A stretch of DNA of 32,000 nucleotides from Flavobacterium capsici. Its GTDB lineage: Bacteria; Bacteroidota; Bacteroidia; Flavobacteriales; Flavobacteriaceae. The position numbers were made by a program, and so were the translations under genes. The DNA lies in the NCBI RefSeq assembly GCF_032098525.1, contig NZ_CP134890.1, positions 2,635,363 through 2,667,362 of the forward strand, in the 5' to 3' direction. This document shows positions 4,901 through 28,827 of this stretch, piece by piece. Each line of letters starts with the position of its first letter. Within the stretch, counting starts at the first letter, position 1. The notes beneath the pieces were generated by a model, which did not search any database, was not told the DNA's origin, and was given only the letters and a program-made list of their open reading frames with translations.

Positions 4901-7384
4901 ATGAAGAAATTATACTATCTATTCCTTTTTTTAATCGGTGTTTTTAATTTTATTTCAGCACAAACCAAAGTCAGTGGAAAAGTGGTTGATAATACGAATC
5001 AACCTATTCCTTACGCAAATATTGTTTTTAAAGGAAGTAATATTGGTGTAGTTTCTAATGAAGATGGAAAGTTTTATATTGAATCAGATCAAAATTATAA
5101 AACACTTCTTGTTTCTTTTGTTGGTTTTCCAACTAAAGAAGTTACTCTTCCAAAACAAATCAACTATAATTTTATTGTTACCTTAAGTGAAGGTCAAAAC
5201 TTGAAAGAAGTAGTTGTTTACGCTGGTAAAACATCAAAGAAAAACAATCCTGCGTTAGATATCTTGAGAAAAATTTGGGAAAGAAGAAGAAAAAATGGGT
5301 TGAAAATGTTCAAACAATACCAATACAGTAAGTATGAAAAAGTAGAGTTTGACATGAATACTATTGACAGTGCAATGATGAAAAGCAAGCTCTTCAAAGG
5401 TTTGGAATTTGTTTTCAAAAATGTGGATACTTCAAGAGTTACAGGAAAAACATATTTGCCAATTTTCATCAATGAATCACTTTCGGATGTTTATGGTGAT
5501 AATGTTGCAGGAAAAAGCAAAGAGATTTTGAAAGCTAATAAAAATTCAGGTTTAGGAAATGGTGATGGTGTAAACACATTTATTAAAGACTTATACAATG
5601 ACTTTGATATTTATGATAATTATCTGTATTTCTTTGATAAAAGTTTTACGAGTCCATTGTCTAGAACAGGAATTGACGTGTACAATTATGTTCTTGCCGA
5701 TACAGCTTTTATAGATAACAAATGGTGTTACAATATTGTTTTCTACCCAAGAAGAAAAGGTGAGTTGACTTTTAAAGGAGATTTTTGGGTAAATGATACC
5801 ACTTTTGCTATTAAGAAAATAAACATGGCAGTTACTAAAAGCGCCAATATTAACTGGGTAAAAGATATTTATGTTGAGCAAGAGTTTGAAGTTTTGAATG
5901 ACTCTATTTTTCTTCCAACACGTGATTACATGATGACCGATTTTGCTTTACGCAAAAAAGAGGAGTCAAAAGGTATTTATGGAAAACGTACTACTTTGTA
6001 TCAAGATTTTAAATTTGACCAAAAGAAGCCTGATAGTTTCTACAAAGAAGAAGTAAATTATATTGATAATTCTGTTTACAATAAAGATGATGATTTTTGG
6101 AGAGAAAATCGTTTTGAAAGACTCAATAAAGATGAAGAAGGAATTTATAAAATGCTTGACACATTAAAAACAGTCAAGAAATTCAAAAGAATGTATAATC
6201 TGGTTTCCATTTTAGGAAGTGGTTATATTGAAATGAATAATTTTGATTATGGACCAATTTTCTCCACTTTTGGATATAATGAAGTAGAAGGTGTTCGTCT
6301 TCGTGTTGGTGGAAGAACTTATTTTGGGCCAAATGATACATGGCGTTTACAAGGTTATACTGCTTATGGATTTGAAGATAATAAATTTAAATATGGTCTT
6401 TCAGGAAAATGGATGGTTGATAAAAAGAAGCGTTTAATACTTTCTGGAGGAAATAGGCGGGATGTAGAACAAATAGGCGCAAGTTTAACCACTACAAATG
6501 ATGTTCTAGGCAGGAGTTATGCTTCGTCAGGACTCTTTACCACAGGTTCTAATGGTAAGTTGACCAATATAAATTTATCTACTATTGCAGCAGAAATTGA
6601 ACCAGTTAAGAATTTAACATTCCAACTTGGGTTTTCGTATCGAACTTTAGAATCTGCATCTGAAACTTTTAGCTTAGATTATTATACAGACAATACATTA
6701 ACTGACATCAAAAGTGAAGTAAAGCAGTCAGAACTTAATTTCCAAATTGAGTTTACTCCTAAGCGTAAAACTATTGGTTATGGTGTTGAACGTAGAGAAG
6801 TAGATAGTCCATATAGTCGCTTTTTTGTAAATTATAGTTCAGGTTTTAAAGGATTATTTGATAGTGATTTTGACTATCAAAAGTTACAGCTTTATTATCG
6901 TCAACCTATTATAATTGGAGCTCTTGGTCATTCAAATTTAACTATGGAGTTAGGTAAAACTTTTGGGCAAATTCCATTAGGTTTGATGAGTGTTGTACCT
7001 GGTAACCAAACCTATTTTATTATTAAGAACACATTTAGTAACTTAAATTTCTATGAGTTTGTGACTGATGAGTATGCTACTTTTCAATGGGAACACAATT
7101 TTAATGGAAAGATTTTTGCTAGATTTCCTTATTTGAGAAAATTAAACCTTCGCGAAATTATTGGTCTTCGTGGTGTTTATGGAAAAATTTCAGATGAAAA
7201 TAGAGCAATTAATGCTTCTGGGTTAACTTATGTTGCTCCCGAAAAACCTTATTGGGAATACAGCGCAGGAATTGGAAATATTTTCAAAGTATTTCGAATA
7301 GATTTCGCTTGGCGTGCAAATTATAGAAATTTACCAGACACTAATAATTTTACAGTCAAAGGTTCATTTGGATTTTATTTTTAA
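4901..7384 (+). CDS. CarboxypepD_reg-like domain protein of the DUF5686 type (outer-membrane associated)
   Basis: The ORF track starts at 4883, but that ATG sits inside the pdhB terminator stem. The next in-frame ATG at 4901 gives the signal peptide MKKLYYLFLFLIGVFNFISAQ. The N-terminus (VSGKVVDNTNQPIPYANIVFKGSNIGVVSNEDGKFYI) is a CarboxypepD_reg signature. The family name is from memory. Confidence 0.7.
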   Translation: MKKLYYLFLFLIGVFNFISAQTKVSGKVVDNTNQPIPYANIVFKGSNIGVVSNEDGKFYIESDQNYKTLLVSFVGFPTKEVTLPKQINYNFIVTLSEGQNLKEVVVYAGKTSKKNNPALDILRKIWERRRKNGLKMFKQYQYSKYEKVEFDMNTIDSAMMKSKLFKGLEFVFKNVDTSRVTGKTYLPIFINESLSDVYGDNVAGKSKEILKANKNSGLGNGDGVNTFIKDLYNDFDIYDNYLYFFDKSFTSPLSRTGIDVYNYVLADTAFIDNKWCYNIVFYPRRKGELTFKGDFWVNDTTFAIKKINMAVTKSANINWVKDIYVEQEFEVLNDSIFLPTRDYMMTDFALRKKEESKGIYGKRTTLYQDFKFDQKKPDSFYKEEVNYIDNSVYNKDDDFWRENRFERLNKDEEGIYKMLDTLKTVKKFKRMYNLVSILGSGYIEMNNFDYGPIFSTFGYNEVEGVRLRVGGRTYFGPNDTWRLQGYTAYGFEDNKFKYGLSGKWMVDKKKRLILSGGNRRDVEQIGASLTTTNDVLGRSYASSGLFTTGSNGKLTNINLSTIAAEIEPVKNLTFQLGFSYRTLESASETFSLDYYTDNTLTDIKSEVKQSELNFQIEFTPKRKTIGYGVERREVDSPYSRFFVNYSSGFKGLFDSDFDYQKLQLYYRQPIIIGALGHSNLTMELGKTFGQIPLGLMSVVPGNQTYFIIKNTFSNLNFYEFVTDEYATFQWEHNFNGKIFARFPYLRKLNLREIIGLRGVYGKISDENRAINASGLTYVAPEKPYWEYSAGIGNIFKVFRIDFAWRANYRNLPDTNNFTVKGSFGFYF

Positions 7385-16217: not shown

Positions 16218-18950
16218 ATGAAAAAAATTATTTTAGTACTGATAACTTTAGTTTCGGTAAGCTCTTTTTCTCAAAATGTCCGTTTTGAAGGAATCATACA
16301 AGACACCAATAAACAGCCATTAGAAATGGCAAACATTATGGCATTGAATCAGGCAACAAAAGCAATGGATGCCTATGCTATTACAAACGATAAAGGAAAA
16401 TTTGTTTTGAATCTTAAAGCTAATTCAACCTATACCGTTAAATTGAGTTATCTAGGTATGCAAAACAAAGAGATAACTGTCAACACATTAAGTGAAAATA
16501 TTTCTCAAAATATCACTATGGAAAGTGGTGGAATTGATCTTGAAGGAGTAGAAATTGTTCGTGAAATGCCAGTTTCAATAAAAGGTGATACTATTGTTTA
16601 CAATGCAGATTCTTTTAAAAATGGAACCGAAAGAAAACTAGAAGATGTACTGAAAAAATTGCCTGGTGTTGAAGTTAATGCTGATGGTGAAGTAGAAGTT
16701 GAAGGGAAAAAAGTTTCAAAGTTGATGGTTGAAGGAAAAGATTTCTTTGATGGCGATACAAAACTTGGTGTAAAAAACATTCCAGCTGATGCGATTGATA
16801 AAGTTCAGGTATTGAGAAATTATAATGAGAATTCTATCTTAAAAGGAGTGGAAAACAATCAGGATAATTTGGCTATGAATATCAAACTAAAAGATGGAAA
16901 GAAAAACTTTTGGTTTGGTGATGTTACTGCTGGTGGCGGAATGGATGATGAAAACAAATTTGACCGTTTTATAATCAACCCGAAGCTTTTTTATTATAAT
17001 CCAAAATACAGCATCAACTTAATCACAAATTTTAATAATATTGGTGAGTTGCCGCTAACTATTCAAGATTATTTTAAATTCACAGGCGGATTTAGAAGCA
17101 TGATGTCTAAAGGCGGTTCTAGTTTTAATGTGCTTAGTAATGATTTAGGATTAGCTGTTCTAAGAAACAATAGAGCTAAAGAAATTGACACTAAATTTGG
17201 AGCTACAAATTTTTCATATAATCCATCAAAAAAATGGACTTTGAGTGGTTTTGGTATTCTTTCTTCTTCAATTACAGATGTTGAAACAGTTACAAACACC
17301 AATTATTTAAAGCCAAATTCCACCGAAGTTGCTTCAACAGAAAACAGAAATCAAATAGCACATCAAGATAGCAATTTGGGATTAGTAAAGTTAAGTTCTC
17401 TTTATAAACCAAATGCTAATTTTCAAATGGATTATGATATTTTGAGTAAGTTTTCTAAGCAAGATGAAAATAATTCATTGTTAAGAGAAGTCATTGATGA
17501 AGATAATAATACTAGCACAGAAAATATTTTAAGCAATAAAAAGCAGAACCCATTTACGATCAATCAAAACTTAAGTTTTTATTATACGCCGAGTTCAAAA
17601 CATGTTTTTGCTTTTGAGTCACAACATTTGTATCAGGAAGAAGATCCATTTTACAATGCCAATTTACAATCCCTACCATTTAATTTGTCGGGATATATAT
17701 CAGGACAAAACAGAAACAATATTAATCAAGACCGTTTTGTAAAGACTAATAAATTGGACACAAAATTGGATTATTACTATATGATTACACCAAAAAGCAA
17801 TATTAATGTTACTTTAGGTAATACGTATTCGTATCAAAGTTTCAATTCAAGAATTTTCCAAATATTAGACAACGAAGATGTAAATAATTTGGATGATGCT
17901 GAAAACACTAATGATGTTAATTATAAATTTGATGATGCTTTTCTTGGTTTGCATTATAAAATATTAACAGGTAAGTTTACATTGACGCCAGGATTTAGTA
18001 TTCATAATTATTCTTTAAATAATACACAATTAGGAAGCAGTTATAAGCAAAATTTTGGTAGAATATTGCCAGACTTCTTAGCTATTTATCAAATTAAGAA
18101 AGCTGAATCGTTAACTTATAATTTTTCATACAATAATAACTTTACCGACATTAATCGTTTAGCTGAAGGATTTGTGTTAAATAATTACAATAGCTTAACG
18201 AAAGGAAACAGAACGATTGAAAATTCAATTCAACAATCACATTCGTTGCGTTATTTTAAATATAATATGTTCAATTTTGAAAATATTTCTGCATTTATCA
18301 ATTACAACAAAACGGTTGATGCTGTTAAGAATAGAGCTTTGTTTAACAATGTAAACCAAATATCTTCTCCAATTAATTCTGCCTTTGCTGACGAAAGTAT
18401 TTCTGGTAATTTACGTTATGGACGTTCATTCTTTAAATATTATAAAGCTTCAATTAGTGCAACACTAAATTGGTCAAAGTTCAACAATATTCAGGTTGAC
18501 AGAGTAACTTTCCAAGATGTTTTAGTAACCAATGAAAGTTTTACGCAAAATTATAATGTTAGTGCTTCTACAAATTTCAAAAACTTTCCTAATTTAGAAT
18601 TAGGTTATGGATATTCGGTAAATCAGTATCCAAATGACACTTTTTATACTGATAGACCAAACGCTAAGCTAGAATACTTTTTCTTAAAAAGCTTTTCTTT
18701 TGTTAGTGAATACGAATATTATCATTATTACAACAAAGACAAAACCGTTGAGAATGAATATGATTTTTTATCGGCAAGCTTGATTTTCCAAAAAACAAAA
18801 GACAGTCATTTTGAGTATAAAGTAAGTGTAACCAATTTATTGAACACAAAAGCTTTAAAAGACAATAGTTTTTCGCAGTTTTCAACCAGTGATTCGCAAT
18901 ATACGATTCAACCACGATACTTAATATTTACTTTGAAATATAATTTATAA
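16218..18950 (+). CDS. Large outer-membrane beta-barrel protein (CarboxypepD_reg + plug-like region, TonB-dependent-receptor-like)
   Basis: 910 aa with a signal peptide. It has a CarboxypepD_reg N-terminus (RFEGIIQDTNKQPLEMANI) and a plug-like segment (GDTIVYNADSF...LEDVLKKLPGVEV). The C-terminus is rich in aromatic residues and ends ...TLKYNL. Confidence 0.8.
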   Translation: MKKIILVLITLVSVSSFSQNVRFEGIIQDTNKQPLEMANIMALNQATKAMDAYAITNDKGKFVLNLKANSTYTVKLSYLGMQNKEITVNTLSENISQNITMESGGIDLEGVEIVREMPVSIKGDTIVYNADSFKNGTERKLEDVLKKLPGVEVNADGEVEVEGKKVSKLMVEGKDFFDGDTKLGVKNIPADAIDKVQVLRNYNENSILKGVENNQDNLAMNIKLKDGKKNFWFGDVTAGGGMDDENKFDRFIINPKLFYYNPKYSINLITNFNNIGELPLTIQDYFKFTGGFRSMMSKGGSSFNVLSNDLGLAVLRNNRAKEIDTKFGATNFSYNPSKKWTLSGFGILSSSITDVETVTNTNYLKPNSTEVASTENRNQIAHQDSNLGLVKLSSLYKPNANFQMDYDILSKFSKQDENNSLLREVIDEDNNTSTENILSNKKQNPFTINQNLSFYYTPSSKHVFAFESQHLYQEEDPFYNANLQSLPFNLSGYISGQNRNNINQDRFVKTNKLDTKLDYYYMITPKSNINVTLGNTYSYQSFNSRIFQILDNEDVNNLDDAENTNDVNYKFDDAFLGLHYKILTGKFTLTPGFSIHNYSLNNTQLGSSYKQNFGRILPDFLAIYQIKKAESLTYNFSYNNNFTDINRLAEGFVLNNYNSLTKGNRTIENSIQQSHSLRYFKYNMFNFENISAFINYNKTVDAVKNRALFNNVNQISSPINSAFADESISGNLRYGRSFFKYYKASISATLNWSKFNNIQVDRVTFQDVLVTNESFTQNYNVSASTNFKNFPNLELGYGYSVNQYPNDTFYTDRPNAKLEYFFLKSFSFVSEYEYYHYYNKDKTVENEYDFLSASLIFQKTKDSHFEYKVSVTNLLNTKALKDNSFSQFSTSDSQYTIQPRYLIFTLKYNL

Positions 18951-19004: not shown

Positions 19005-20255
19005 TTATAATCCAAAAGCTGTTTTTATTTTGTCTACAAAATCTAATTTTTCCCAAGTAAATAACTCAACTATTACAGTTTTTGGCGCACCATTTGGTAA
19101 TTGGAACGTTTTAGAAACCGTTTCAGGTTTTCTTCCCATATGTCCATAAGCAGCAGTTTCACTATAAATTGGGTTTCTTAATTTTAAACGTTGCTCAATA
19201 AAATATGGACGCATATCAAAAATAGTTTCAACAACTTTAGAAATTTCACCATCAGTCATATTCACTTTTGCAGTTCCATATGTATTTACGTTGATAGAAG
19301 TTGGTTTAGCTACACCAATAGCGTACGAAACTTGAACTAAAATTTCATCACACAATCCAGCAGCAACTAAATTTTTAGCAATATGACGTGTAGCATAAGC
19401 TGCAGAACGGTCAACTTTACTAGGATCTTTTCCAGAAAAAGCACCACCACCATGAGCACCTTTTCCACCATAAGTATCAACAATAATTTTTCTTCCTGTT
19501 AAACCTGTATCACCATGCGGTCCACCAATCACAAATTTCCCAGTTGGATTGATATGATATGTAATATCATCATTAAATAAATGTGCATATTGAGGATATT
19601 TTGCTTTAACTCTTGGAATCAAAATTGACACTAAATCACTTTTGATTTTAGCTAACATAGTTGGTTCATCAGCAAAATCATCATGTTGAGTAGAAATTAC
19701 AATAGCATCAATTCTAACAGGTTTGTTATCGTCAGAATACTCTAGAGTTACTTGCGATTTTGCGTCTGGGCGCAGGTATTTAATTTCGTTATTTTCTCTT
19801 CTGATAGCGGCTAATTCAATCAATAATGCATGCGATAAATCTAACGCCAAAGGCATGTAATTTTCGGTTTCATTTGTAGCATATCCAAACATCATTCCTT
19901 GATCGCCAGCGCCTTGTTCTTCTTTGCTTGCTCTGTCAACACCTTGATTAATATCTGCAGATTGTTCGTGAATTGCTGAAAGTACTCCACAAGAATCTGC
20001 TTCAAACATGTATTCACTTTTTGTATAACCAATTTTGCGAATAACTTCTCTCGCAATTTGTTGAACATCAAGATAAGTAGTTGATTTTACTTCACCAGCT
20101 AAAATTACTTGACCAGTAGTTACTAAAGTTTCACAAGCCACTTTTGAATCAGCATCAAACGCTAAAAAATTATCAATTAATGCATCACTAATTTGATCAG
20201 CAACTTTATCAGGATGTCCTTCACTAACTGACTCCGACGTAAATAAATAAGCCAT
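19005..20255 (-). CDS. metK: S-adenosylmethionine synthetase
   Basis: 416 aa. Signatures: [25 protein letters not shown] and [19 protein letters not shown]. Confidence 0.97.
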
Positions 20256-20295
20256 AAATAACTATATTTTTAGTTTAATATTATTGTTAAATGAA

Positions 20296-20406
20296 GAAAA
20301 AAGTGGATTGCCAACAAAGCTAAAGGAGAGTTTCTGCTTTAGCATTTTTTAACGAGGTTGCAATCAGTTCAAATTTCTCCTCTTTATTTTTTCGATTGCA
20401 AATGTA
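20296..20406 (-). promoter_or_regulatory. Structured 5' leader of metK with mutually exclusive helices and a T-run (candidate riboswitch/attenuator, class unassigned)
   Basis: All reads are on the minus strand. A -7-like box TACATTTG lies at 20399-20406. Segment A is TGCAATC (20394-20400), segment B is GATTGCAAC (20357-20365) and segment C is GTTGGCAATC (within 20303-20315). A:B and B:C pairings are mutually exclusive. B:C is followed by CAC and then TTTTTT. A nested hairpin GCTAAAG/CTTTAGC lies at 20319-20343. Confidence 0.4.
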
Positions 20407-20587
20407 TAAAGACTATTTAGAATAAGAAAAACAATTTTACTTTTTTTATTTTATTTATGAAATTTTCAAAAATCTAAATACGTAGTATTTAAATATATAT
20501 AATCAACTTTTAAATGTTAAATTTTCATTTTTTGTTTGGTCAATTAAAAAATAGTTCAGAAGTTTGCCTCAGTAAAAATAAAGAAAA

Positions 20588-20656
20588 ATGAATTTCACAA
20601 TGTGCCATATGTGTCGTATGATGTCGGAAACCTCCGCAGAGAACACTATTGCATAA
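20588..20656 (+). CDS. Candidate leader peptide 1 (Met/Cys-rich), MNFTMCHMCRMMSETSAENTIA
   Basis: 22 codons, of which 5 are ATG and 2 are Cys. The start context is A-rich (AAAGAAAAATG). The 3' part duplicates both arms of the downstream terminator. Confidence 0.6.
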   Translation: MNFTMCHMCRMMSETSAENTIA

Positions 20657-20682
20657 TTTTAAATTCTTAAAATATATTCAAT

Positions 20683-20712
20683 GAAACCTCTGCCAACAGC
20701 AGAGGTTTTTTT
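20683..20712 (+). terminator. Attenuator terminator 1
   Basis: GAAACCTCTGC (20683-20693) pairs with GCAGAGGTTTT (20699-20709) across a 5-nt loop. The T-run is seven T long. Confidence 0.85.
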
Positions 20713-20743
20713 ATTTAATTCAAATTTAAAAAAACAACAAAAA

Positions 20744-20842
20744 ATGAAAGTAACAGCAAAGAATATGATGATGTCAAACATGATGATGCACATGATGTGT
20801 TGTCGTATGGACATATGCTGTTACCAAAAGCGGAAGACTTAA
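20744..20842 (+). CDS. Candidate leader peptide 2 (Met/Cys-rich), MKVTAKNMMMSNMMMHMMCCRMDICCYQKRKT
   Basis: 32 codons, of which 10 are ATG and 4 are Cys. The start context is A-rich. The last 17 nt before the stop mimic the 3' arm of the downstream terminator. Confidence 0.7.
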   Translation: MKVTAKNMMMSNMMMHMMCCRMDICCYQKRKT

Positions 20843-20863
20843 TCGTAGTTATATCTATATTCT

Positions 20864-20901
20864 AAAGTCCTTTTGGTAAGCCATCCAAAAGGACTTTTTT
20901 T
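20864..20901 (+). terminator. Attenuator terminator 2
   Basis: AAAGTCCTTTTGG (20864-20876) pairs with CCAAAAGGACTTT (20885-20897) across an 8-nt loop. The T-run is seven T long. It ends 50 nt upstream of the metY ATG. Confidence 0.88.
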
Positions 20902-20950
20902 ATTTCTAAATTTTTTAAATCAATTATAAATAATCTAAAAATTCTAAATC

Positions 20951-22243
20951 ATGAGCACACAAAAATTCGCAACAAACGCGTTGCACGCAGGACACGATGT
21001 TACAAAAAATGCAGGAACTAGAGCAGTTCCTATTTACCAAACATCATCGTATGTTTTTAATAACTCAAACCATGCAGCCAATCTTTTTGGTTTAGCAGAA
21101 GCTGGTTTCATTTACACACGTTTGAACAATCCAACCAATGACATTCTTGAACAACGTTTAGCTGCGCTTGAAGGCGGAATTGGAGCGGTTGTAACAGCAT
21201 CGGGAACTTCGGCAATTGCTACAACATTTTTAACTTTACTAAAAGCAGGCGATCACATTGTAGCTTCCAATAGTTTATACGGCGGAACATACAATTTGTT
21301 AAAAGTTACACTACCAAGATTAGGAATCACAACTACTTTTGTTGATCCTTCAAATCCTGAAAATTTCACAAAAGCGACACAAGAAAATACCAGAGCTTTT
21401 TTTGTAGAAAGTTTGGGTAATCCAAAATTAGATGTTTTGGATTTAGAAGCTATTTCGAAAGAAGCAAAAGCTTTCAAAGTTCCTTTTATTGTTGACAATA
21501 CGGTAGCAACACCTTATTTATTAAACCCAATAAAATATGGTGTAGACATTGTAATTCATTCACTTACAAAATACATTACTGGAAACGGAACATCGCTAGG
21601 TGGAGTTATTATCGATGCTGGAAATTTTGATTGGAGCAATGGAAAATTTCCTGAATTCACAGAACCATCAGCAGGCTATCACGGATTGAAATATTATGAA
21701 GCACTTGGCGCAGCATCTTTTATTGCCAAAGTAAGAATTGAAGGATTACGCGATTTTGGTGCAGCATTAAGTCCGTTTAATGCTTTTCAAACCATTCAAG
21801 GATTGGAAACATTAGAAATCAGGATTAAAAAACACAGCGAAAATGCTTTGATTTTGGCAAAATGGTTAGAGGAACAAGAAGAAGTAGCTTGGGTTAATTA
21901 TCCTGGATTAGAATCTTCAAAATATAAATCAATTGCTGATAAATATTTGCCAAATGGTAAAAGCGGAATCGTAACATTTGGACTAAAAGATGGATTTGAA
22001 GCTGCAAAAAAAGTTGCAGATGAAACGAAACTATTTTCTCTTTTAGCCAACATTGGAGATACAAAATCATTAATCATTCATCCGGCGAGTACAACTCATC
22101 AACAGTTATCTGATTCTGAACAAGTGTCAACTGGCGTTACAAAAGATTTAATTCGTCTTTCAGTTGGTCTTGAAGATATTGATGATTTAAAAGCAGATTT
22201 AAGAGAAGTTTTTTCAAAAATTAAAACCCCACAAATAGTATAA
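20951..22243 (+). CDS. metY: O-acetylhomoserine sulfhydrylase (aminocarboxypropyltransferase), PLP-dependent
   Basis: 430 aa of the Cys/Met-metabolism PLP family. It has YTRLNNPT and the PLP-lysine region HSLTKYITGNG. The C-terminus reads HPASTTH..L. Confidence 0.92.
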   Translation: MSTQKFATNALHAGHDVTKNAGTRAVPIYQTSSYVFNNSNHAANLFGLAEAGFIYTRLNNPTNDILEQRLAALEGGIGAVVTASGTSAIATTFLTLLKAGDHIVASNSLYGGTYNLLKVTLPRLGITTTFVDPSNPENFTKATQENTRAFFVESLGNPKLDVLDLEAISKEAKAFKVPFIVDNTVATPYLLNPIKYGVDIVIHSLTKYITGNGTSLGGVIIDAGNFDWSNGKFPEFTEPSAGYHGLKYYEALGAASFIAKVRIEGLRDFGAALSPFNAFQTIQGLETLEIRIKKHSENALILAKWLEEQEEVAWVNYPGLESSKYKSIADKYLPNGKSGIVTFGLKDGFEAAKKVADETKLFSLLANIGDTKSLIIHPASTTHQQLSDSEQVSTGVTKDLIRLSVGLEDIDDLKADLREVFSKIKTPQIV

Positions 22244-22244
22244 A

Positions 22245-22703
22245 ATGAGCACAAAAATTGTAAATGTTTTAGGTTACGCAAAAGGTAATAATCAGTTTGT
22301 TGTCAAAGCACAAAACTTTGATGTTAGAATTAGTAAAAATGATCAATTTCCAGAATTGGAAGGTCCAAGTCCAATAGAATATATTTTGGCAGGTTATGCA
22401 GGTTGCATAAATGCTGTTGGGAAATTAGTTGCAAAAGAGCAAGGAATAACTTTAAAATCAATTCAAGTAGAAATTACTGGAACCTTGAGTTTAGATAAAT
22501 ATCAGGGAAAAATAAGCAATGAAAGAGCAGGTTTCAGTTCTATTGAAGTGATTGTAAAACCTACTGCAGATGCAACATTAGAGGAATTGAAAGAATGGTT
22601 GATAGAATTGGAAAAACGTTGTCCAGTACATGATAATTTAATCAACAAAACACCAGTTCATGTAACTTTATTCAAAGAATTTCAGGCTATTGATGCTGCA
22701 TAA
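22245..22703 (+). CDS. OsmC/Ohr-family protein
   Basis: 152 aa. Two cysteines sit in the usual OsmC positions (YAGCINAV and KRCPVHDNL). It begins 1 nt after the metY stop. Confidence 0.8.
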   Translation: MSTKIVNVLGYAKGNNQFVVKAQNFDVRISKNDQFPELEGPSPIEYILAGYAGCINAVGKLVAKEQGITLKSIQVEITGTLSLDKYQGKISNERAGFSSIEVIVKPTADATLEELKEWLIELEKRCPVHDNLINKTPVHVTLFKEFQAIDAA

Positions 22704-22742
22704 TTTATATAAAACATTGGTTATGTTTTTTGTTTGTTCGAA

Positions 22743-22777
22743 CTGTCTTCAATTGTGAAGTTGAAGGCAGTTTTTTT
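22743..22777 (+). terminator. Intra-cluster rho-independent terminator between the OsmC-like gene and metX
   Basis: CTGTCTTCAA (22743-22752) pairs with TTGAAGGCAG (22761-22770), giving 10 bp including one G-U pair. A run of seven T follows. Confidence 0.65.
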
Positions 22778-22805
22778 AAAAAAACTTCCAAAAAAAAGAT
22801 GCAAA

Positions 22806-23804
22806 ATGAAAAAATTAGAAAAAATAGACTTGTATAATTTTGAATTAGAAAACGGAAAACAATCTGTTTATATTCCATTGTTTTACCAAGTTTTTGGGCA
22901 GCCAATTGGAGATGCGCCAGTAGTTGTTGTAAATCATGCATTAACAGGAAATTCAAATGTTTCAGGAGAAAATGGTTGGTGGAATGATTTAATTGGTGAA
23001 AATAAAACGATTAACACTAATCGATTCACAGTTATTGCATTTAACATACCTGGAAATGGTTTTGATGGTATTGATAAAAATTTAATTTCAAATTATCAAG
23101 ATTTTACAATTAGAGATGTGGCAAACATTTTTTGGGAAGGTTTATTTTTTTTAAACATAAAAGATGTTTTTAGTTTAATTGGTGGAAGTCTTGGTGGTGC
23201 AATTGCATGGGAAATGACTGTTATTCAACCTGAAAAAATTCAAAATCTTATACCGATAGCTACAGATTGGAAGGCTACAGATTGGGTTATAGCAAATGTT
23301 TTGATTCAAGACCAAATTCTAAATAATTCAAAAAATCCAATTATGGATGCTCGACTTCATGCCATGCTTTTATATAGAACGCCGCAATCTATTAATCAGC
23401 GTTTTTTGAGACAGAAAACAGATAATTTTTCAAAATATCAAATAGAAAACTGGCTTCAAAACCATGGAATAAAACTCAAAAATCGATTTCAATTGTCGGC
23501 TTATAAATTGATGAATCACTTATTGAAAACTAATGATATTACTCGCAATAGAAATAGTTTTTTGGAATTATCTAAAAATATAAAAGCAAATATTCATATC
23601 GTTTCTGTCGATTCAGATTATTTTTTTATTGCCGATGAAAACCGTGAAACTTATTTTCAATTGAAAAATAATAATAATGTTTACTATCATGAAATAAAAT
23701 CTGTTCATGGACATGATGCTTTTCTGATTGAGTTTGAACAATTAGTCGAAATTTTAGAACCTATTTTTTATAAAAAAACAAAACAAATTTATGTCACCAC
23801 TTAA
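22806..23804 (+). CDS. metX: Homoserine O-acetyltransferase
   Basis: Alpha/beta-hydrolase fold with nucleophile elbow IGGSLGG and C-terminal HGHDAFLIE. I place the start at ATG 22806 (MKKLEKIDLY...). The track's TTG start at 22734 would read through the terminator hairpin. Confidence 0.88.
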   Translation: MKKLEKIDLYNFELENGKQSVYIPLFYQVFGQPIGDAPVVVVNHALTGNSNVSGENGWWNDLIGENKTINTNRFTVIAFNIPGNGFDGIDKNLISNYQDFTIRDVANIFWEGLFFLNIKDVFSLIGGSLGGAIAWEMTVIQPEKIQNLIPIATDWKATDWVIANVLIQDQILNNSKNPIMDARLHAMLLYRTPQSINQRFLRQKTDNFSKYQIENWLQNHGIKLKNRFQLSAYKLMNHLLKTNDITRNRNSFLELSKNIKANIHIVSVDSDYFFIADENRETYFQLKNNNNVYYHEIKSVHGHDAFLIEFEQLVEILEPIFYKKTKQIYVTT

Positions 23805-24891
23805 AATAAATATAATACTTTTTGGTATTGGAAACGTTGGTAGCACTTTGATTAATCAAGTTCTTGAGAGTCAAAAATTTTTTCTTGAAAAGAGAAACAT
23901 AGAACTTAGATTTCCAATAATAACCAATTCAACTTTAGCTTTTTTTGAAAAAGATGGAATTAAAAATCAATGGGAAGCTAATTTTGTTAACGCTGCCATT
24001 CCTTTTAAAATTGAAGATATAATTGAATACATTCAAGAACAACAATTAGAAAATTTAATTGCAGTTGATGCGACAGCTAGCAATGATTTTGTTAAAAATT
24101 ATATTCCTTTAATTCAAAATGGTTTTAACATTGTAGCGGCTAATAAAAAAGCAAATACTTTGCATTTTGATTTTTACAATGAATTGAGAAGAAATCTCAA
24201 AAAGTTTGATAAATCATTTTTGTATGAAACCAATGTTGGAGCAGGTTTGCCAGTAATTCAAACGATAAATGATTTGCATTTTTCAGGTGAGAAAATAACT
24301 AAAATAAGAGGTGTTTTTTCGGGTTCTTTGAGTTATATTTTCAATAGATTTTCTAATGAAGATACTTCTTTTTCTAAAATTCTTGATGCTGCCGAAAAAA
24401 ATGGATTAACAGAACCCGATTCTCGTGAAGATTTAGCTGGAAAAGATGTTGCTCGAAAACTACTTATTTTAGCTAGAGAAATAGGGAAAGAATTCGAACT
24501 TTCTGATGTTAGAGTTTCATCTCTTTTACTGCCTAACTTGAATGAAACCCATTCAAAAGCAGAGTATTCAGTGAATAAGCAATTATTTGATAAACCGTTT
24601 CATATTGCAAAAGTTGCTCAAGAAGAAAACCACGTTTTAAAATATGTTGGAGATTTTGATGTGAAAAAAAATATTTTGGAAGTCAAATTGGTTTCAATTC
24701 CAAAAAGCTCACCAATCGGTCAACTGAAAGGAGCAGATAATTTGATAGAAATTTATACTGAATCTTATGGTGAAATTCCCATTGTAATTCAAGGCGCTGG
24801 AGCTGGAAGAAAAGTTACAGCACGTGGAGTTTTAACCGATGTTTTAAAAATTGCTGAGAAAATAAAAATTCAAGAAGCTGTTTGGGCTTAA
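23791..24891 (+). CDS. hom: Homoserine dehydrogenase
   Basis: 366 aa. It has the N-terminal Rossmann motif LFGIGNVGSTL, and YETNVGAGLPVI plus FSGSLSYIFN as in the dehydrogenase domain of ThrA/MetL. It overlaps metX by 14 nt. Confidence 0.88.
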   Translation: MSPLKINIILFGIGNVGSTLINQVLESQKFFLEKRNIELRFPIITNSTLAFFEKDGIKNQWEANFVNAAIPFKIEDIIEYIQEQQLENLIAVDATASNDFVKNYIPLIQNGFNIVAANKKANTLHFDFYNELRRNLKKFDKSFLYETNVGAGLPVIQTINDLHFSGEKITKIRGVFSGSLSYIFNRFSNEDTSFSKILDAAEKNGLTEPDSREDLAGKDVARKLLILAREIGKEFELSDVRVSSLLLPNLNETHSKAEYSVNKQLFDKPFHIAKVAQEENHVLKYVGDFDVKKNILEVKLVSIPKSSPIGQLKGADNLIEIYTESYGEIPIVIQGAGAGRKVTARGVLTDVLKIAEKIKIQEAVWA

Positions 24892-24957: not shown

Positions 24958-25020
24958 CTAAAACTGTTGCAAATTAAAATTCTATGCCTTTACTTTGCAC
25001 CGTTCATAAACATAATGATT

Positions 25021-25119
25021 GTTATCACGAAAGCTGGAGAGATTAGACTCTATGAAAGCTTAGCAACCCTACACTTGTAGAAGGTGCTACATTCTATTCG
25101 CCTTGGCGAAACAGATAAC
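25021..25119 (+). promoter_or_regulatory. SAM-I (S-box) riboswitch
   Basis: P1 pairs GTTATC (25021-25026) with GATAAC (25114-25119). The P2/kink-turn region is GCTGGAGAGATTAGACTCTATGAAAGC. The core strings TTAGCAACC and GGTGCTACATTC are present. P3 is CTAC-ACTT-GTAG and P4 is TTCGC-CTTG-GCGAA. The order and spacing match the S-box consensus (..AUC.AGAG.GG.GGAGGGA..GGCCC.AUGAA.CC.GCAACC...GGUGCUAA.UCC...AGAU.A). Confidence 0.85.
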
Positions 25120-25177
25120 CCGAAGAAATACTTTCCAGTTTCTGATAACAATTAATTTATAAAACGTTATTAGAAAA

Positions 25178-26167
25178 ATGTCAAAAATTCAAGAAGCAAT
25201 TCAAGAAAGAATACTCGTTCTCGACGGAGCAATGGGAACTATGCTGCAACGTAATAATTTCTCAGAAGAGGATTTTAGAGGCGAAAGATTCAAAGATTTT
25301 CCACATCCATTAAAAGGAAATAATGATTTGCTTTCCATTACACAACCTGAAGCTGTAAAGCAAGTGCATCGCCTGTATTTTCAAGCAGGTGCAGATATTG
25401 TTGAAACCAATACTTTTTCAGGAACAACTATAGGTATGGCCGATTATCATATGGAAGATTTAGTGTATGAACTAAATTTTCAATCAGCAAAAATTGCTCG
25501 AGAAGTTGCCGATGAATTTACAGATAGACCACGTTTTGTGGCTGGTTCCATTGGACCAACAAACAGAACAGCTTCTATGTCGCCAGATGTTAATGATCCT
25601 GGATTTCGTGCTGTAACTTTTGATGATTTACGAATTGCATACAAACAGCAAATTGAAGCTTTAATTGATGGCGGATGTGATGTTTTATTGGTAGAAACCA
25701 TTTTCGATACATTAAATGCAAAAGCAGCACTTTTTGCTATTGAAGAAGTAAAAGAAGAACGAAATATTGATGTCCCGGTAATGGTTTCAGGAACAATCAC
25801 GGATGCTTCAGGAAGAACACTTTCTGGACAAACGGTTGAAGCTTTCTTAATTTCGATTTCACATATTCCGTTGTTGAGTATCGGATTTAATTGTGCTTTA
25901 GGTGCCGACCAATTGAAACCGTATTTAAAGCGATTGGCAATGAATACACAACTCAATATTTCGGTGCATCCAAATGCAGGTTTACCTAATGCTTTTGGTC
26001 AGTATGATCAAACTCCTGAAGAAATGCAGGCATTGGTTAAAGAATACCTTCAAGATAATTTAATAAATATTATTGGCGGTTGTTGTGGAACAACTCCAGA
26101 ACACATTAAAGAAATTGCTGAAGTTGCAAAAGATTTTAAACCAAGACAAATTTTAGAAACGATATAA
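25178..26167 (+). CDS. metH: Methionine synthase, separate homocysteine-binding (S-methyltransferase) module
   Basis: 329 aa. It starts [13 protein letters not shown] and ends with the Zn-ligand motif [11 protein letters not shown]. Its stop overlaps the next start (TAATG). Confidence 0.9.
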
Positions 26168-28827
26168 TGGCGCAAGCAAAATACTTAAAATTATCAGGTC
26201 TTGAACCTTTAATAATAACTCCTGAAACCAATTTTGTAAATGTTGGTGAAAGAACCAATGTAACAGGTTCGCGAAAATTTCTTCGTTTAATCAAAGAAGA
26301 AAAATTTGAAGAAGCATTGGATATTGCAAGAAATCAAGTTGAAGGTGGCGCGCAAATTATTGATGTAAATATGGACGAAGGAATGCTTGATGGAGTAGAA
26401 GCAATGACTAAATTCTTAAATCTGATAGCTGCTGAACCAGATATTGCTCGTGTTCCGGTGATGATTGATAGCTCTAAATGGGAAATTATTGAAGCGGGTT
26501 TAAAAGTCATCCAAGGAAAAGGAGTTGTAAATTCTATTTCTTTAAAAGAAGGAAAAGAAGCTTTCATTCATCATGCAAAATTAATCAAACGCTATGGTGC
26601 AGCAGTAATTGTTATGGCTTTTGACGAAAATGGTCAAGCGGATACTTATGAAAGACGCATCGAAATTTGCAAAAGAAGTTATGATATTTTGGTAAATGAA
26701 GTTCATTTTCCAGCCGAAGATATCATTTTTGATCCTAATATTTTTCCGGTTGCAACTGGAATGGATGAACATAAATTAAACGCCTTGGATTTTTTCAGAG
26801 CAACCAAATGGATTCGAGAAAATTTACCTTATGCACATGTTTCTGGTGGTGTGAGCAATGTTTCATTCTCTTTTCGTGGCAACGACAAAGTGCGTGAAGC
26901 AATGCATTCTGCATTTTTATATCATGCCATTCAAAATGGTATGACAATGGGAATTGTAAACCCTGAAATGTTGGAGATTTATGATGAAATTGATAAAAAC
27001 TTACTCGAACATGTGGAAGATGTTTTGCTAAATAGAAGAGAAGATGCAACAGAACGATTACTAGATTTAGCAGAAAGTTTTAAAGGTGATTTTAAGTCAA
27101 ATGAAAAAGCTATTGCGGAATGGAGAAATGAAGATGTACAATCTCGTTTAACGCATTCGTTAGTAAAAGGAATTGATGAATTCATCGAAATTGATGTAGA
27201 AGAAGCGAGACAACAGGTTGCTCGACCTATAGAAGTTATCGAAAATCATCTGATGAATGGAATGAATGTAGTCGGTGATTTGTTTGGTTCAGGAAAAATG
27301 TTTTTGCCACAAGTAGTGAAATCGGCTCGTGTGATGAAAAAAGCAGTAGCATATTTGTTACCATTTATTGAAGCTCAAAAAGACGGAAAATCTTCTTCTG
27401 CAGGAAAAGTGTTGATGGCAACCGTAAAAGGTGATGTTCATGATATTGGTAAAAATATTGTATCAGTGGTATTGGCTTGTAATAACTTTGAAATTATTGA
27501 TTTAGGAGTTATGGTTCCGCCAGAAAAAATAATTGCTGCAGCGGTTGAACATAATGTTGATATTATAGGTTTAAGTGGTTTGATTACACCTTCGCTTGAT
27601 GAAATGGTTTATTTGGCAAAAGAATTAGATAAACTGAATATCAAAATCCCAGTAATGATTGGTGGTGCAACAACATCTCGTGCGCATACTGCGGTAAAAA
27701 TTGCCCCTGAATATGCTGCTTCAGTGGTTCATGTCAATGATGCTTCGCGTGCTGTTACCGTTGCGAGTAATTTACTTCAAGTAGAAACAAAAGATAAATA
27801 TTCGAAGAATATAAGAGAAGAATACGATACGCTAAGAGAACAATTTTTGAATAGAAGTCGCGAAAAGAATTATTTATCAATTGAAGAAGCTCGTAAAAAC
27901 AAATTAAAATTGGATTGGGAAAATTATAATCCAGTAAAGCCAAATTTTATTGGGACAAAAACTATTGATGTTGAACTTTCGGAATTGATTGATTTTATAG
28001 ATTGGACACCCTTTTTTCAGTCTTGGGAATTACACGGAAAATATCCTGCTATTCTAACCGATGAAATTGTGGGCGAACAAGCTACTAATCTATTTGCAGA
28101 TGCGGAAAAATTGTTGAATCAGATAGTTGATGAAAAATGGTTCGAAGCAAAAGGGATTCTAGGTATTTTTCCAGCAAATACTGTTAATGATGACGATATA
28201 GAACTCATTAATCAGAACTCAAAATTCTTGACTCTTCGTCAGCAATCACAAAAAACAGTTGGCGCGCCAAATATTGCGTTAGCGGATTTTATTGCTCCCA
28301 AAGATTCAGGAATTCAAGATTACATAGGTTGTTTTTGTGTTTCGACAGGATTTGGAGTTGAGGAAAAGGCAGCTGAATACAGAAAAGAATTGGATGATTA
28401 TAATTCCATTTTAATTCAAGCACTTGGTGATAGATTAGCTGAAGCTTTTGCTGAATATTTGCATCTAAAAGTTAGAAAAGAAATTTGGGGTTATGATTCG
28501 GATGAAAATCTTTCAAACGAAGAATTAATCAAAGAAAATTACAAAGGAATTCGTCCTGCGCCTGGTTATCCTGCATGTCCTGACCATTTGGAGAAACCTA
28601 CCATTTGGAAATTATTAAATGCGGAAGAAGAAATTGGTGTAAAACTAACCGAAAGCATGGCCATGTGGCCTGCATCATCCGTTTCGGGATATTATTTTGC
28701 TAATCCACAAAGTAAATATTTTGGACTAGGGAAAATAAAAATGGACCAAGTAGAAGATTACGCTAAAAGAAGAAATATAAGTATAGAAGAAGCTACAAAA
28801 TGGCTTAACCCAAATATTGCCGACTAA
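26167..28827 (+). CDS. metH: Methionine synthase, pterin-binding + cobalamin-binding + AdoMet-activation modules
   Basis: 886 aa. The pterin-binding region reads [14 protein letters not shown]. The B12 motifs are [19 protein letters not shown] and MIGGATTS. The C-terminal activation domain reads [12 protein letters not shown]. Confidence 0.93.

Follow-up and report, generated by a model that had tools for sequence, protein, structure and literature searches.

Two leader-peptide attenuators in series, rich in Met and Cys codons, probably control the metY operon in Flavobacterium

What controls the methionine operon of Flavobacterium capsici, in front of which stand two short open reading frames (sORFs) crowded with Met and Cys codons, each followed by a transcription terminator? 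The locus lies in a stretch of 32,000 nt (NZ_CP134890.1, 2,635,363-2,667,362), referred to here as the window, and coordinates in this genome are given as window positions. Methionine genes are usually controlled by S-adenosylmethionine (SAM) riboswitches, Met T-boxes or proteins of the MetJ/MetR type. The classical leader-peptide attenuators are those of Escherichia coli and Salmonella trp, his, leu, thr, ilvGMEDA and pheA. An earlier examination of the letters of this DNA alone (the sequence-only reading) had proposed that a tandem attenuator architecture of this ribosome-stalling kind stands upstream of metY, and conservation, coding-type indels, folding and geometry now support it. It is probable that two leader-peptide transcription attenuators in series, reading the charging of Met- and Cys-transfer RNA (tRNA), control the genes metY-osmC-metX-hom, whose earlier assignments are correct by NCBIfam.

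On the + strand, going from metK to metY, a promoter-like motif, sORF1, terminator T1, sORF2, terminator T2 and metY follow one another (Table 1). The leader measures 360 nt, with the start of sORF2 about 30 nt after T1 and the start of metY 53 nt after T2. The coordinates and strings quoted in the sequence-only reading all prove exact, including the TAA stop codon at 20840-20842. The two units have only the ATG/TGT core in common, their P1 helices (described below), tails and terminators being different. A duplication, as suggested by this core in the sequence-only reading, is no more than possible.

The window has 32% G+C, and ATG, TGT and TGC together make up 4.7% of its trinucleotides. Against the window's trinucleotide frequencies, the 13 Met or Cys codons among the 31 non-start codons of sORF2 correspond to p=4.5e-10 and the 6 among 21 of sORF1 to p=3e-4. 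Of the 209 open reading frames (ORFs) of 15-60 codons that begin with ATG in the window, sORF2 is the top outlier and sORF1 is joint second. The claim that this codon density lies beyond chance stands for sORF2; the enrichment in sORF1 by itself fails multiple testing and is rescued by conservation in ~65/80 genomes. The final Cys pair of sORF2, TGC TGT (20816-20821), belongs to helix P1, and related loci do not keep it as Cys. A 53-codon ORF at 20681-20842 (+) (MKPLPTAEVFLF...), in which an in-frame ATG inside T1 extends sORF2, was considered and rejected, as it owes its extra codons to the first-ATG rule of ORF calling and relatives do not share them.

Conservation was followed in the 80 closest metY loci, one genome per species, all from Flavobacterium or from unclassified or mis-binned Flavobacterium-like metagenome-assembled genomes (MAGs). 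These sequences are related to each other, and the shuffle and permutation figures given below consequently overstate independence. The Met/Cys-rich sORF2 together with T2 is present at 80/80 loci. The pair of sORF1 and T1 is found at 62 loci by a first scan and at 3 more by motif, i.e., at ~65/80. The consensus of sORF1 is M.(F/L)T(I/M)CNMC(R/C)MM..., with the run C-N-M-C-(R/C)-M-M, and that of sORF2 is M..IAKNMMM..MMMHMMCC...CYQKRKT, replaced in the F. johnsoniae group by MKTIAKRNMMCCKMMQMCIP.CCCQK; in F. johnsoniae itself the sORF has 26 codons. The median number of internal codons is 6 Met and 4 Cys in sORF2, and 3 Met and 2 Cys in sORF1. A CC(C) block directly after the Met run of sORF2 is conserved in the 80 loci, and the gap from stop codon to terminator is 19-38 nt. 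The start codon of sORF1 is conserved, and an A-rich, nearly invariant sequence lies just 5′ of both ATGs, which fits the Shine–Dalgarno-independent initiation of Bacteroidetes. The search for MetY homologues returned matches of at least 87% identity throughout, and the MetY of the window is 93% identical to that of F. aquatile and relatives. For the OsmC-like protein, 350 relatives were returned, every named one of which belongs to Flavobacterium or to an unclassified Bacteroidota MAG.

The manner in which the sORFs vary indicates that they are read as codons. Within the Met/Cys runs, gap lengths are divisible by three without exception (207/207 in unit 2 and 112/112 in unit 1, 319/319 in total), while gaps in the spacers outside the runs are of any length. 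ATG occurs 707 times in frame and 20 times out of frame. The Cys codons are written both as TGT (306) and as TGC (185), and the sequence between the Met runs is free in its letters and fixed in its phase. The tail of sORF1 behaves differently: the GCAGAG within it is near-invariant as RNA and is read in two frames, giving ..PQR.. at 33 loci and ..SAE.. at 29. A 1-nt indel on each side of GCAGAG restores the frame, and the ORF ends 12-13 nt further on in 50/62 loci. As GCAGAG is read in two frames with compensated frameshifts, the tail of sORF1 is, on this pattern, conserved as RNA, its run as codons and its stop as a position. Four independent signs of this type argue that both sORFs are read as codons, from which their translation may be inferred.

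Each unit ends in a strong intrinsic terminator. A terminator scan places T1 and T2 on the + strand only, among the strongest in 20 kb, and they lie 5′ of a gene and not 3′ of one. In the alignments, T1 has 98.9% of cells paired with compensatory changes in 3/10 pairs, and T2 has 99.5% of cells paired with compensatory changes in 4/12 pairs (U-A 42 / C-G 21). Both leader segments fold better than shuffles, with z = -4.6 and -4.4. The consensus folds (RNAalifold) also contain one helix per unit, P1, that spans the coding run. The P1 of unit 1 has 91% of cells paired and compensatory changes in 3/7 pairs; between its strands lie the Met/Cys codons, the antiterminator strand and a small inner hairpin (UG.YGG:CCGCA), which has 95% of cells paired without covariation and overlaps the GCA of GCAGAG. 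Compensatory changes occur in 6/7 pairs of the P1 of unit 2 (C-G 27 / U-A 26), which spans the whole Met/Cys run. None of 500 shuffles (0/500) was as good for T2 plus unit-2 P1, and none for T1 plus unit-1 P1, and slid controls were far worse. The 3′ strand of unit-2 P1 has UUAC in common with the extended antiterminator, which is their sole overlap, and this helix is a candidate anti-antiterminator or pause hairpin. Beyond these hairpins, the consensus folds contain no multi-stem junction and no conserved unpaired core.

The sequence-only reading had pointed to copies of the terminator arms within the tails of the sORFs. In sORF2, CCAAAAG (20824-20830) and GACTT (20836-20840) do copy the 3′ arm of T2 at 20885-20896. 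In sORF1, GAAACCTC (20627-20634) and GCAGAG (20636-20641) match T1 at 20683-20690 and 20699-20704; only GCAGAG is conserved, the GAAACCTC copy being specific to this genome. When the 3′ arm is left out of the consensus fold, GCAGAG (20636-41) pairs with CUCUGC (20688-93) in unit 1 and CCAAAAG (20824-30) with CUUUUGG (20870-76) in unit 2. Of the unit-2 antiterminator, drawn earlier as 7 + 5 bp, the 7-bp part appears in the fold, and the pairing is better drawn as UUACCAAAAG:CUUUUGGUAA. In this extended form it takes up the first 3 nt of the T2 loop, which is strongly conserved, and shares bases with the 3′ strand of P1. The duplex has -16.2 kcal/mol in the window. In the tail of unit 1, CCGCAGAG, around antiterminator strand 1, is nearly invariant.

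Evidence for these pairings also comes from comparison between tails and arms. In unit 2, cognate tail/arm duplexes average -13.19 against -12.23 kcal/mol for non-cognate ones (permutation p<2e-4, relatedness not corrected), and cognate duplexes of -12 to -13 kcal/mol compare with about -7 kcal/mol for shuffled tails. A variant with a GGAAA loop (L041/L046/L047/L058, and also the paralogues described below) has UUCC in its tail (UUCC:GGAA) in place of UUACC. Unit 1 has diverged in L045 and in the paralogue leaders of L068 and L056, where the arms are GCUUCUC/GAGAGGC, GCCUCCC/GGGAGGC and GCUUCCCG/CGGGAGGC and the tails carry the matching strings GAGAA, AGGGAG and UGCGGG. When unit-1 tails and arms are combined in a 4x4 matrix of duplexes, each row has its strongest duplex in the cognate pair (-10.6, -6.9, -12.6, -13.7 kcal/mol). 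The support for the antiterminators is accordingly mixed: it comes from variants, paralogues and the cognate versus non-cognate comparison, and not from column covariation.

The position of the codons relative to these strands was examined with a masking model, in which the ribosome covers up to 12 nt past the A-site codon (an assumed footprint) and the free RNA is folded up to the terminator loop. In unit 1 of the window, every A-site position through Met12 allows the antiterminator to form, and none from the following codon onward does; in unit 2 the antiterminator remains whole through Met22 and has gone by codon 27 (Tyr). Across loci, the unit-1 boundary lies -1 or 0 codons from the last Met in 36/44 cases, and the unit-2 boundary lies +2 to +4 codons from it in 57/79, where the CC(C) block follows the last Met. 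Of the unit-2 Met/Cys codons, 695/825 lie no further 3′ than the boundary; the final Cys pair of sORF2 in the window lies past it. The regulatory codons stand ~12 nt 5′ of the antiterminator strand. The stop codon lies 0-13 nt beyond that strand, and a terminating ribosome would therefore cover it. Folding with and without masked tails gives the expected switch, and the model agrees with the earlier proposal that a ribosome at the stop codon of sORF2 masks the copied arm.

These features suggest the following course of events. Transcription would begin ~15 nt 5′ of sORF1, and in each unit a ribosome would translate a short ORF whose middle is full of AUG (Met) and UGY (Cys). With ample charged Met- and Cys-tRNA, the ribosome would reach the stop codon and cover the antiterminator strand (GCAGAG in unit 1, UUACCAAAAG in unit 2). 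This would allow T1 or T2 to form and the polymerase to halt. When charged tRNA is scarce, the ribosome would stall in the Met/Cys run with its front edge just short of the antiterminator strand. The freed strand would then pair with the emerging 5′ arm of the terminator, and the polymerase would read through. Transcription of the operon would require passing both gates. The operon supplies homocysteine through direct sulfhydrylation, and perhaps cysteine as well by way of MetY, while the SAM riboswitches of metK and metH would sense the downstream product. Both the stalling and the response to Met/Cys supply are, on this scheme, presumed from the arrangement of the leader. As for the P1 helices, they may act as pause or synchronizing hairpins, or as partial anti-antiterminators.

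A more specific version of this logic can be put forward tentatively, and we regard it as possible and somewhat doubtful. Here read-through would be the default: the antiterminator would form unless a ribosome completes the leader, whether through a stall or through failed initiation, and termination would be the active event. Such a default is plausible because Met limitation affects both initiation (fMet-tRNA) and elongation. Two serial gates with differing Met:Cys ratios might then produce a steep, two-input response that complements SAM sensing, and RNAs such as Rfp20, the transcript discussed below, might in addition act in trans.

The start of transcription is suggested by a motif pair that stands at a constant distance from the ATG of sORF1 in nearly all loci, with perfect TACATTTG or TATATTTG boxes at several of them. 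The naming of the -7 box relies on a TAnnTTTG-type consensus, which we take to be that of Bacteroidetes sigma-A promoters. sORF1 begins at least 22 nt downstream of the promoter-like motif, and we infer a putative start ~12-18 nt (about 15 nt) 5′ of sORF1, leaving a short, A-rich 5′ untranslated region (UTR). A scan for sigma-70 promoters gave the same counts as shuffles and is uninformative, as expected for Bacteroidetes.

Transcription of the leader is documented in F. psychrophilum. The printed sequence of the transcript Rfp20 of this species contains sORF1 (ATGAAAATTACAATATGCAATATATGTCGTATGGCC...CCGCAGAG...), and on arrays the transcript reads log2 4-6 in broth and on agar of full strength, against 8.7-11.3 on 0.5x and 0.2x agar (PMC9723704). 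In the same samples, metY rises from ~4-7 to 8.1-9.5 (PMC9723704). The leader is thus transcribed and nutrient-responsive in F. psychrophilum, and Rfp20 supports the putative transcript start 5′ of sORF1. The same study lists Rfp20 as a putative small RNA (sRNA) and a “possible cis-regulatory element” near metY, and Met/Cys leader peptides were not recognized there (PMC9723704). In one species subgroup, one or two TAGAAAA-N-TTTCTA palindromes lie 20-90 nt 5′ of the ATG of sORF1 and flank or overlap the TAnnTTTG-like box (L008, L009, L018, L030, L046, L047, L055, L076). These palindromes could be a transcription-factor operator, which would fit the strong medium-dependence of Rfp20.

The leader takes several forms among the related loci. 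Unit 2 stands alone in ~15/80 of them, mostly in the F. johnsoniae group. In that group, an ORF of ~61 codons (MRTLNSIALEYLLRND...) lies between T2 and metY (L053 2739-2922; same position in L048, L051, L057 and others), and its presence accounts for the T2-metY spacer of 270-300 nt. In F. terrisoli (L027, ~1961-2795), unit 1 (sORF MRFTMCHMCRMMSETSAE and T1) is found ~990 nt 5′ of metY, with ~700 nt inserted between units 1 and 2. Three MAGs named Candidatus Nitrotoga, Bifidobacterium breve and Variovorax paradoxus (L010, L011, L018) contain Flavobacterium-type metY loci with both leaders and a MetY that is 91-92% identical; these contigs are probably mis-binned. In F. psychrophilum (L058, ~2660-2775), sORF1 has ATA where relatives have ATG (MKITICNICRMASENSAEYRIASF...) and its stop is displaced, while CCGCAGAG and the terminator are retained. 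The first unit of this species may be decaying or re-purposed.

A second metY paralogue with its own diverged pair of leader sORFs and terminators is present in F. taihuense and F. maritimum, and within L068 the second metY copy is 87% identical to the first. The leader module has been duplicated along with this second gene. In the paralogous leaders the first sORF has lost most of its Met codons, and the second (sORF2′) has more Cys than Met.

A number of observations weigh against two working attenuators. Unit 1 is absent from the ~15 loci just mentioned, and F. psychrophilum and the paralogous leaders have lost Met codons of sORF1 and kept the RNA structure. The sequence-only reading had called for a search for compensatory changes in terminator and antiterminator arms among relatives. 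The sORFs, their Met/Cys runs and the terminators are conserved and the terminators covary; the antiterminator columns, tested for the 7-bp and 10-bp versions of unit 2 and the 7-bp version of unit 1, are 90-92% paired (unit 2: 92%) with zero compensatory changes in the orthologue alignments, both strands being nearly invariant. In thirteen sequences a U of the T2 arm has become C and the 3′ arm has changed to match, while the tail has stayed as it was. The unit-1 antiterminator is also absent from the truncated minimum free energy (MFE) fold in 18/62 loci. At full length, the MFE fold always holds the terminator, and both terminators are more stable than the antiterminators, so equilibrium folding cannot separate the two states and the switch must be kinetic. 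The antiterminator is, in addition, predicted in the absence of any ribosome, and the trp-type rule by which no translation means termination is not evident. The codon bias could partly serve RNA structure, as AUG, UGU and CAU runs can pair with one another. Lastly, the amount of Rfp20 itself changes 30-100-fold with the medium; promoter control or transcript stability must therefore contribute and could explain part of the regulation.

Some of these points would be expected if a ligand- or protein-binding RNA switch, e.g., an undescribed riboswitch for SAM, Met or homocysteine, drove T1 and T2 without translation, leaving the AUG/UGU richness as a structural by-product. The nucleotides of unit 1 are highly conserved, with CCGCAGAG and GGAAA nearly invariant, the P1 helices covary as the closing stem of a riboswitch would, the AUG/UGU runs are paired in the MFE fold, and the structure outlasts the decayed Met codons. 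An untranslated aptamer would, however, not be expected to accept indels in multiples of three only, to keep ATG in frame or to compensate frameshifts in the tail of sORF1, nor to leave the sequence between the runs free in letters and not in phase. With no Rfam family matched and no multi-stem junction or conserved unpaired core beyond the hairpins, this explanation has only a slim chance of being correct. The slimmest chance is given to the idea that the sORFs are products in their own right that merely adjoin metY, either as Met/Cys-rich micropeptides with a metal or redox role or as trans-acting sRNAs of the Rfp20 type. It can draw on the cataloguing of Rfp20 as an independent F. psychrophilum transcript, on the conserved C-terminus YQKRKT of sORF2, and on Sinorhizobium, in which released attenuator RNAs and leader peptides can reportedly act in trans. 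Yet the conserved C-terminus of sORF2 is encoded by the antiterminator strand, and the tail of sORF1, being read in two frames, gives a peptide that is not conserved. The place directly 5′ of metY is kept in 80/80 loci, and the module was duplicated with the second metY; a role in trans would add to attenuation rather than replace it.

It is also conceivable, if rather unlikely, that Met alone is sensed, that the Cys codons serve RNA pairing (UGU with AUG) or reflect drift, and that unit 1 is a decaying duplicate of little function. The terminal TGC TGT of sORF2, which falls in P1 and is not kept as Cys, points this way, as do the loss of unit 1 and the decay of its Met codons in some lineages. 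The CC(C) block after the Met run, by contrast, is conserved in the 80 loci with both TGT and TGC in use, and falls among the stall positions at which the antiterminator stays free. In the paralogous sORF2′, Cys codons outnumber Met codons. Sulfide is a substrate of MetY-type enzymes, which carry the annotation of bifunctional O-acetylhomoserine/O-acetylserine sulfhydrylases and for which a sulfur or Cys signal would be sensible. On balance, tandem attenuators reading both Met- and Cys-tRNA charging remain the preferred explanation.

The resemblance to classical attenuators is close in several respects. The transcript opens with a small ORF in which codons for the product abound, an intrinsic terminator precedes the first gene, its 5′ arm is predicted to pair alternatively with the end of the leader ORF, and the stop codon is placed for masking. 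Unlike the classical cases, the codons are AUG and UGY and two complete units are arranged in series. No clear 1:2 structure enforces termination of untranslated RNA, and the antiterminator forms ribosome-free in the model. Met is also the initiator, so that starvation would affect the loading of the leader. The host phylum, unlike the hosts of classical attenuators, does not rely on Shine–Dalgarno-led initiation. With SAM riboswitches and Met T-boxes, the leader has in common the pathway and the output, i.e., premature termination in a 5′ leader; it differs in that the proposed reader is a translating ribosome and not an aptamer or a tRNA-binding RNA, and in having no covariance-model match.

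The earlier expectation that 20400-20950 would contain no known riboswitch was borne out: scans against Rfam, of the window at gathering thresholds and of 20250-21000 with permissive filters, found nothing above threshold in the leader and no T-box match. The sub-threshold matches in the leader are terminator-like (Phe_leader, 24 bits vs 55; STnc370, 27.6 vs 54). Gathering-threshold scans of eight related loci gave the same picture, with no family in the leader. Full-text literature searching, outside of which most subscription journals lie, found no Met leader-peptide attenuator of a met operon, and we know of no Met-specific attenuator of such an operon. Met codons have reportedly been predicted in the thrA leader of Pasteurellales, in work of 2004 that is attributed to Vitreschak and colleagues. 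The statement that such an attenuator is undescribed holds within the literature that could be searched, where one paper saw the transcript and not the leader peptide.

Leader-peptide attenuators have been reported in F. psychrophilum for ilvE (three in tandem), hisG, aromatic genes and trp (Guerin et al. 2021, PMC9723704). Since ilvE, hisG and trp of this species are reported to use it, the mechanism is in use in the genus. The metY leaders are like these F. psychrophilum leaders, including the Bacteroidetes trp leader of Rfam, in their A-rich start, short ORF, strong terminator and tandem repetition (PMC9723704). Upstream sORFs also control sulfur amino-acid genes in Actinobacteria according to cysteine supply, and there the leaders contain runs of Cys codons (Seliverstov 2005, PMC1262725; Canestrari et al., 10.1101/834739). 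Those sORFs are described as leaderless and without conserved intrinsic terminators or Met codons (PMC1262725; 10.1101/834739), and Rho-dependent termination has been proposed for them (PMC1262725). The Flavobacterium leaders, in contrast, begin with a brief A-rich 5′ UTR, contain strong terminators and predicted antiterminators, and have Met as their predominant regulatory codon.

Table 1. Features of the metY leader, the operon and its surroundings. Positions are those of the window; for the paralogous leaders, the locus handle precedes the position.
Feature	Position	Strand	Details
Putative Bacteroidetes-type promoter	20535-20566	+	TTTG 20535-20538, 20-nt spacer, GAAGTTTG 20559-20566 (TAnnTTTG-like -7 box)
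sORF1 (leader peptide 1)	20588-20656	+	MNFTMCHMCRMMSETSAENTIA; 5 ATG and 2 Cys codons/22
Putative regulatory codons of sORF1	20600-20623	+	ATG TGC CAT ATG TGT CGT ATG ATG = Met5, Cys6, Met8, Cys9, Met11, Met12
Helix P1 of unit 1	20603-20653	+	UGCCAUA 20603-20609 : UAUUGCA 20647-20653; RNAalifold
Predicted antiterminator strand 1, GCAGAG	20636-20641	+	pairs with CUCUGC 20688-20693, T1 5′ arm
Terminator T1	20683-20712	+	stem 20683-20693/20699-20709, T7 20706-20712; -14.2 kcal/mol
sORF2 (leader peptide 2)	20744-20842	+	MKVTAKNMMMSNMMMHMMCCRMDICCYQKRKT; 10 ATG and 4 Cys codons/32; TAA stop 20840-20842
Met/Cys codon run of sORF2	20765-20809	+	MMM..MMM.MMCC.M; Met22 = 20807-20809
Helix P1 of unit 2	20750-20824	+	GUAACAGC 20750-20757 : GCUGUUAC 20817-20824; RNAalifold; spans whole Met/Cys run
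Predicted antiterminator strand 2	20821-20840	+	UUACCAAAAG 20821-20830 : CUUUUGGUAA 20870-20879; GACUU 20836-20840 : AAGUC 20865-20869
Terminator T2	20864-20901	+	5′ arm 20864-20876, loop UAAGCCAU 20877-20884, 3′ arm 20885-20897, T run to 20901; -17.6 kcal/mol
Putative regulated operon metY-osmC-metX-hom	20951-24891	+	ORFs adjacent or overlapping
metY	20951-22243	+	NCBIfam TIGR01326, 638 bits
OsmC-like gene	22245-22703	+	
metX	22734-23804	+	MetX NCBIfam model
Homoserine dehydrogenase (hom)	23791-24891	+	homoserine dehydrogenase NCBIfam model
metK	19005-20255	-	divergent from metY
SAM-II long-loop riboswitch	20329-20388	-	Rfam match, 64 bits; precedes metK
SAM-I riboswitch	25019-25121	+	Rfam match, 73 bits; precedes metH
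metH, split in two ORFs	25178-26167 and 26167-28827	+	329 aa and 886 aa
Paralogous metY leader	L068 5693-6035		gene 6128-7288
Paralogous metY leader	L056 6590-6900		gene ~7015 onward

The surroundings of the leader also concern methionine. SAM riboswitches occur in this genome at metK and metH only, and related loci are arranged alike. As a SAM-II element precedes metK and a SAM-I element precedes metH, the methionine regulon would be divided between SAM riboswitches and leader peptides. The first of the two metH ORFs corresponds to the homocysteine-binding domain and the second to the rest of the protein, with the stop of the first overlapping the start of the second. A 910-aa ORF adjoining metK (16218-18950, +) has no NCBIfam match at E<=0.001.

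The tandem Met/Cys attenuator of Bacteroidota is apparently a real and undescribed addition to the classical class of ribosome-mediated attenuators. If this is true, a single genus splits its methionine regulon between SAM sensing (metK, metH) and the sensing of tRNA charging (metY-metX-hom). It also allows one to ask how attenuation works when initiation of the leader peptide itself depends on the amino acid that is sensed. A function would be given to Rfp20, a transcript of a fish pathogen, and the module is compact enough that it could enter Rfam and annotation pipelines. The single-unit version occurs in F. johnsoniae, a genetically tractable species in which the prediction is directly testable.

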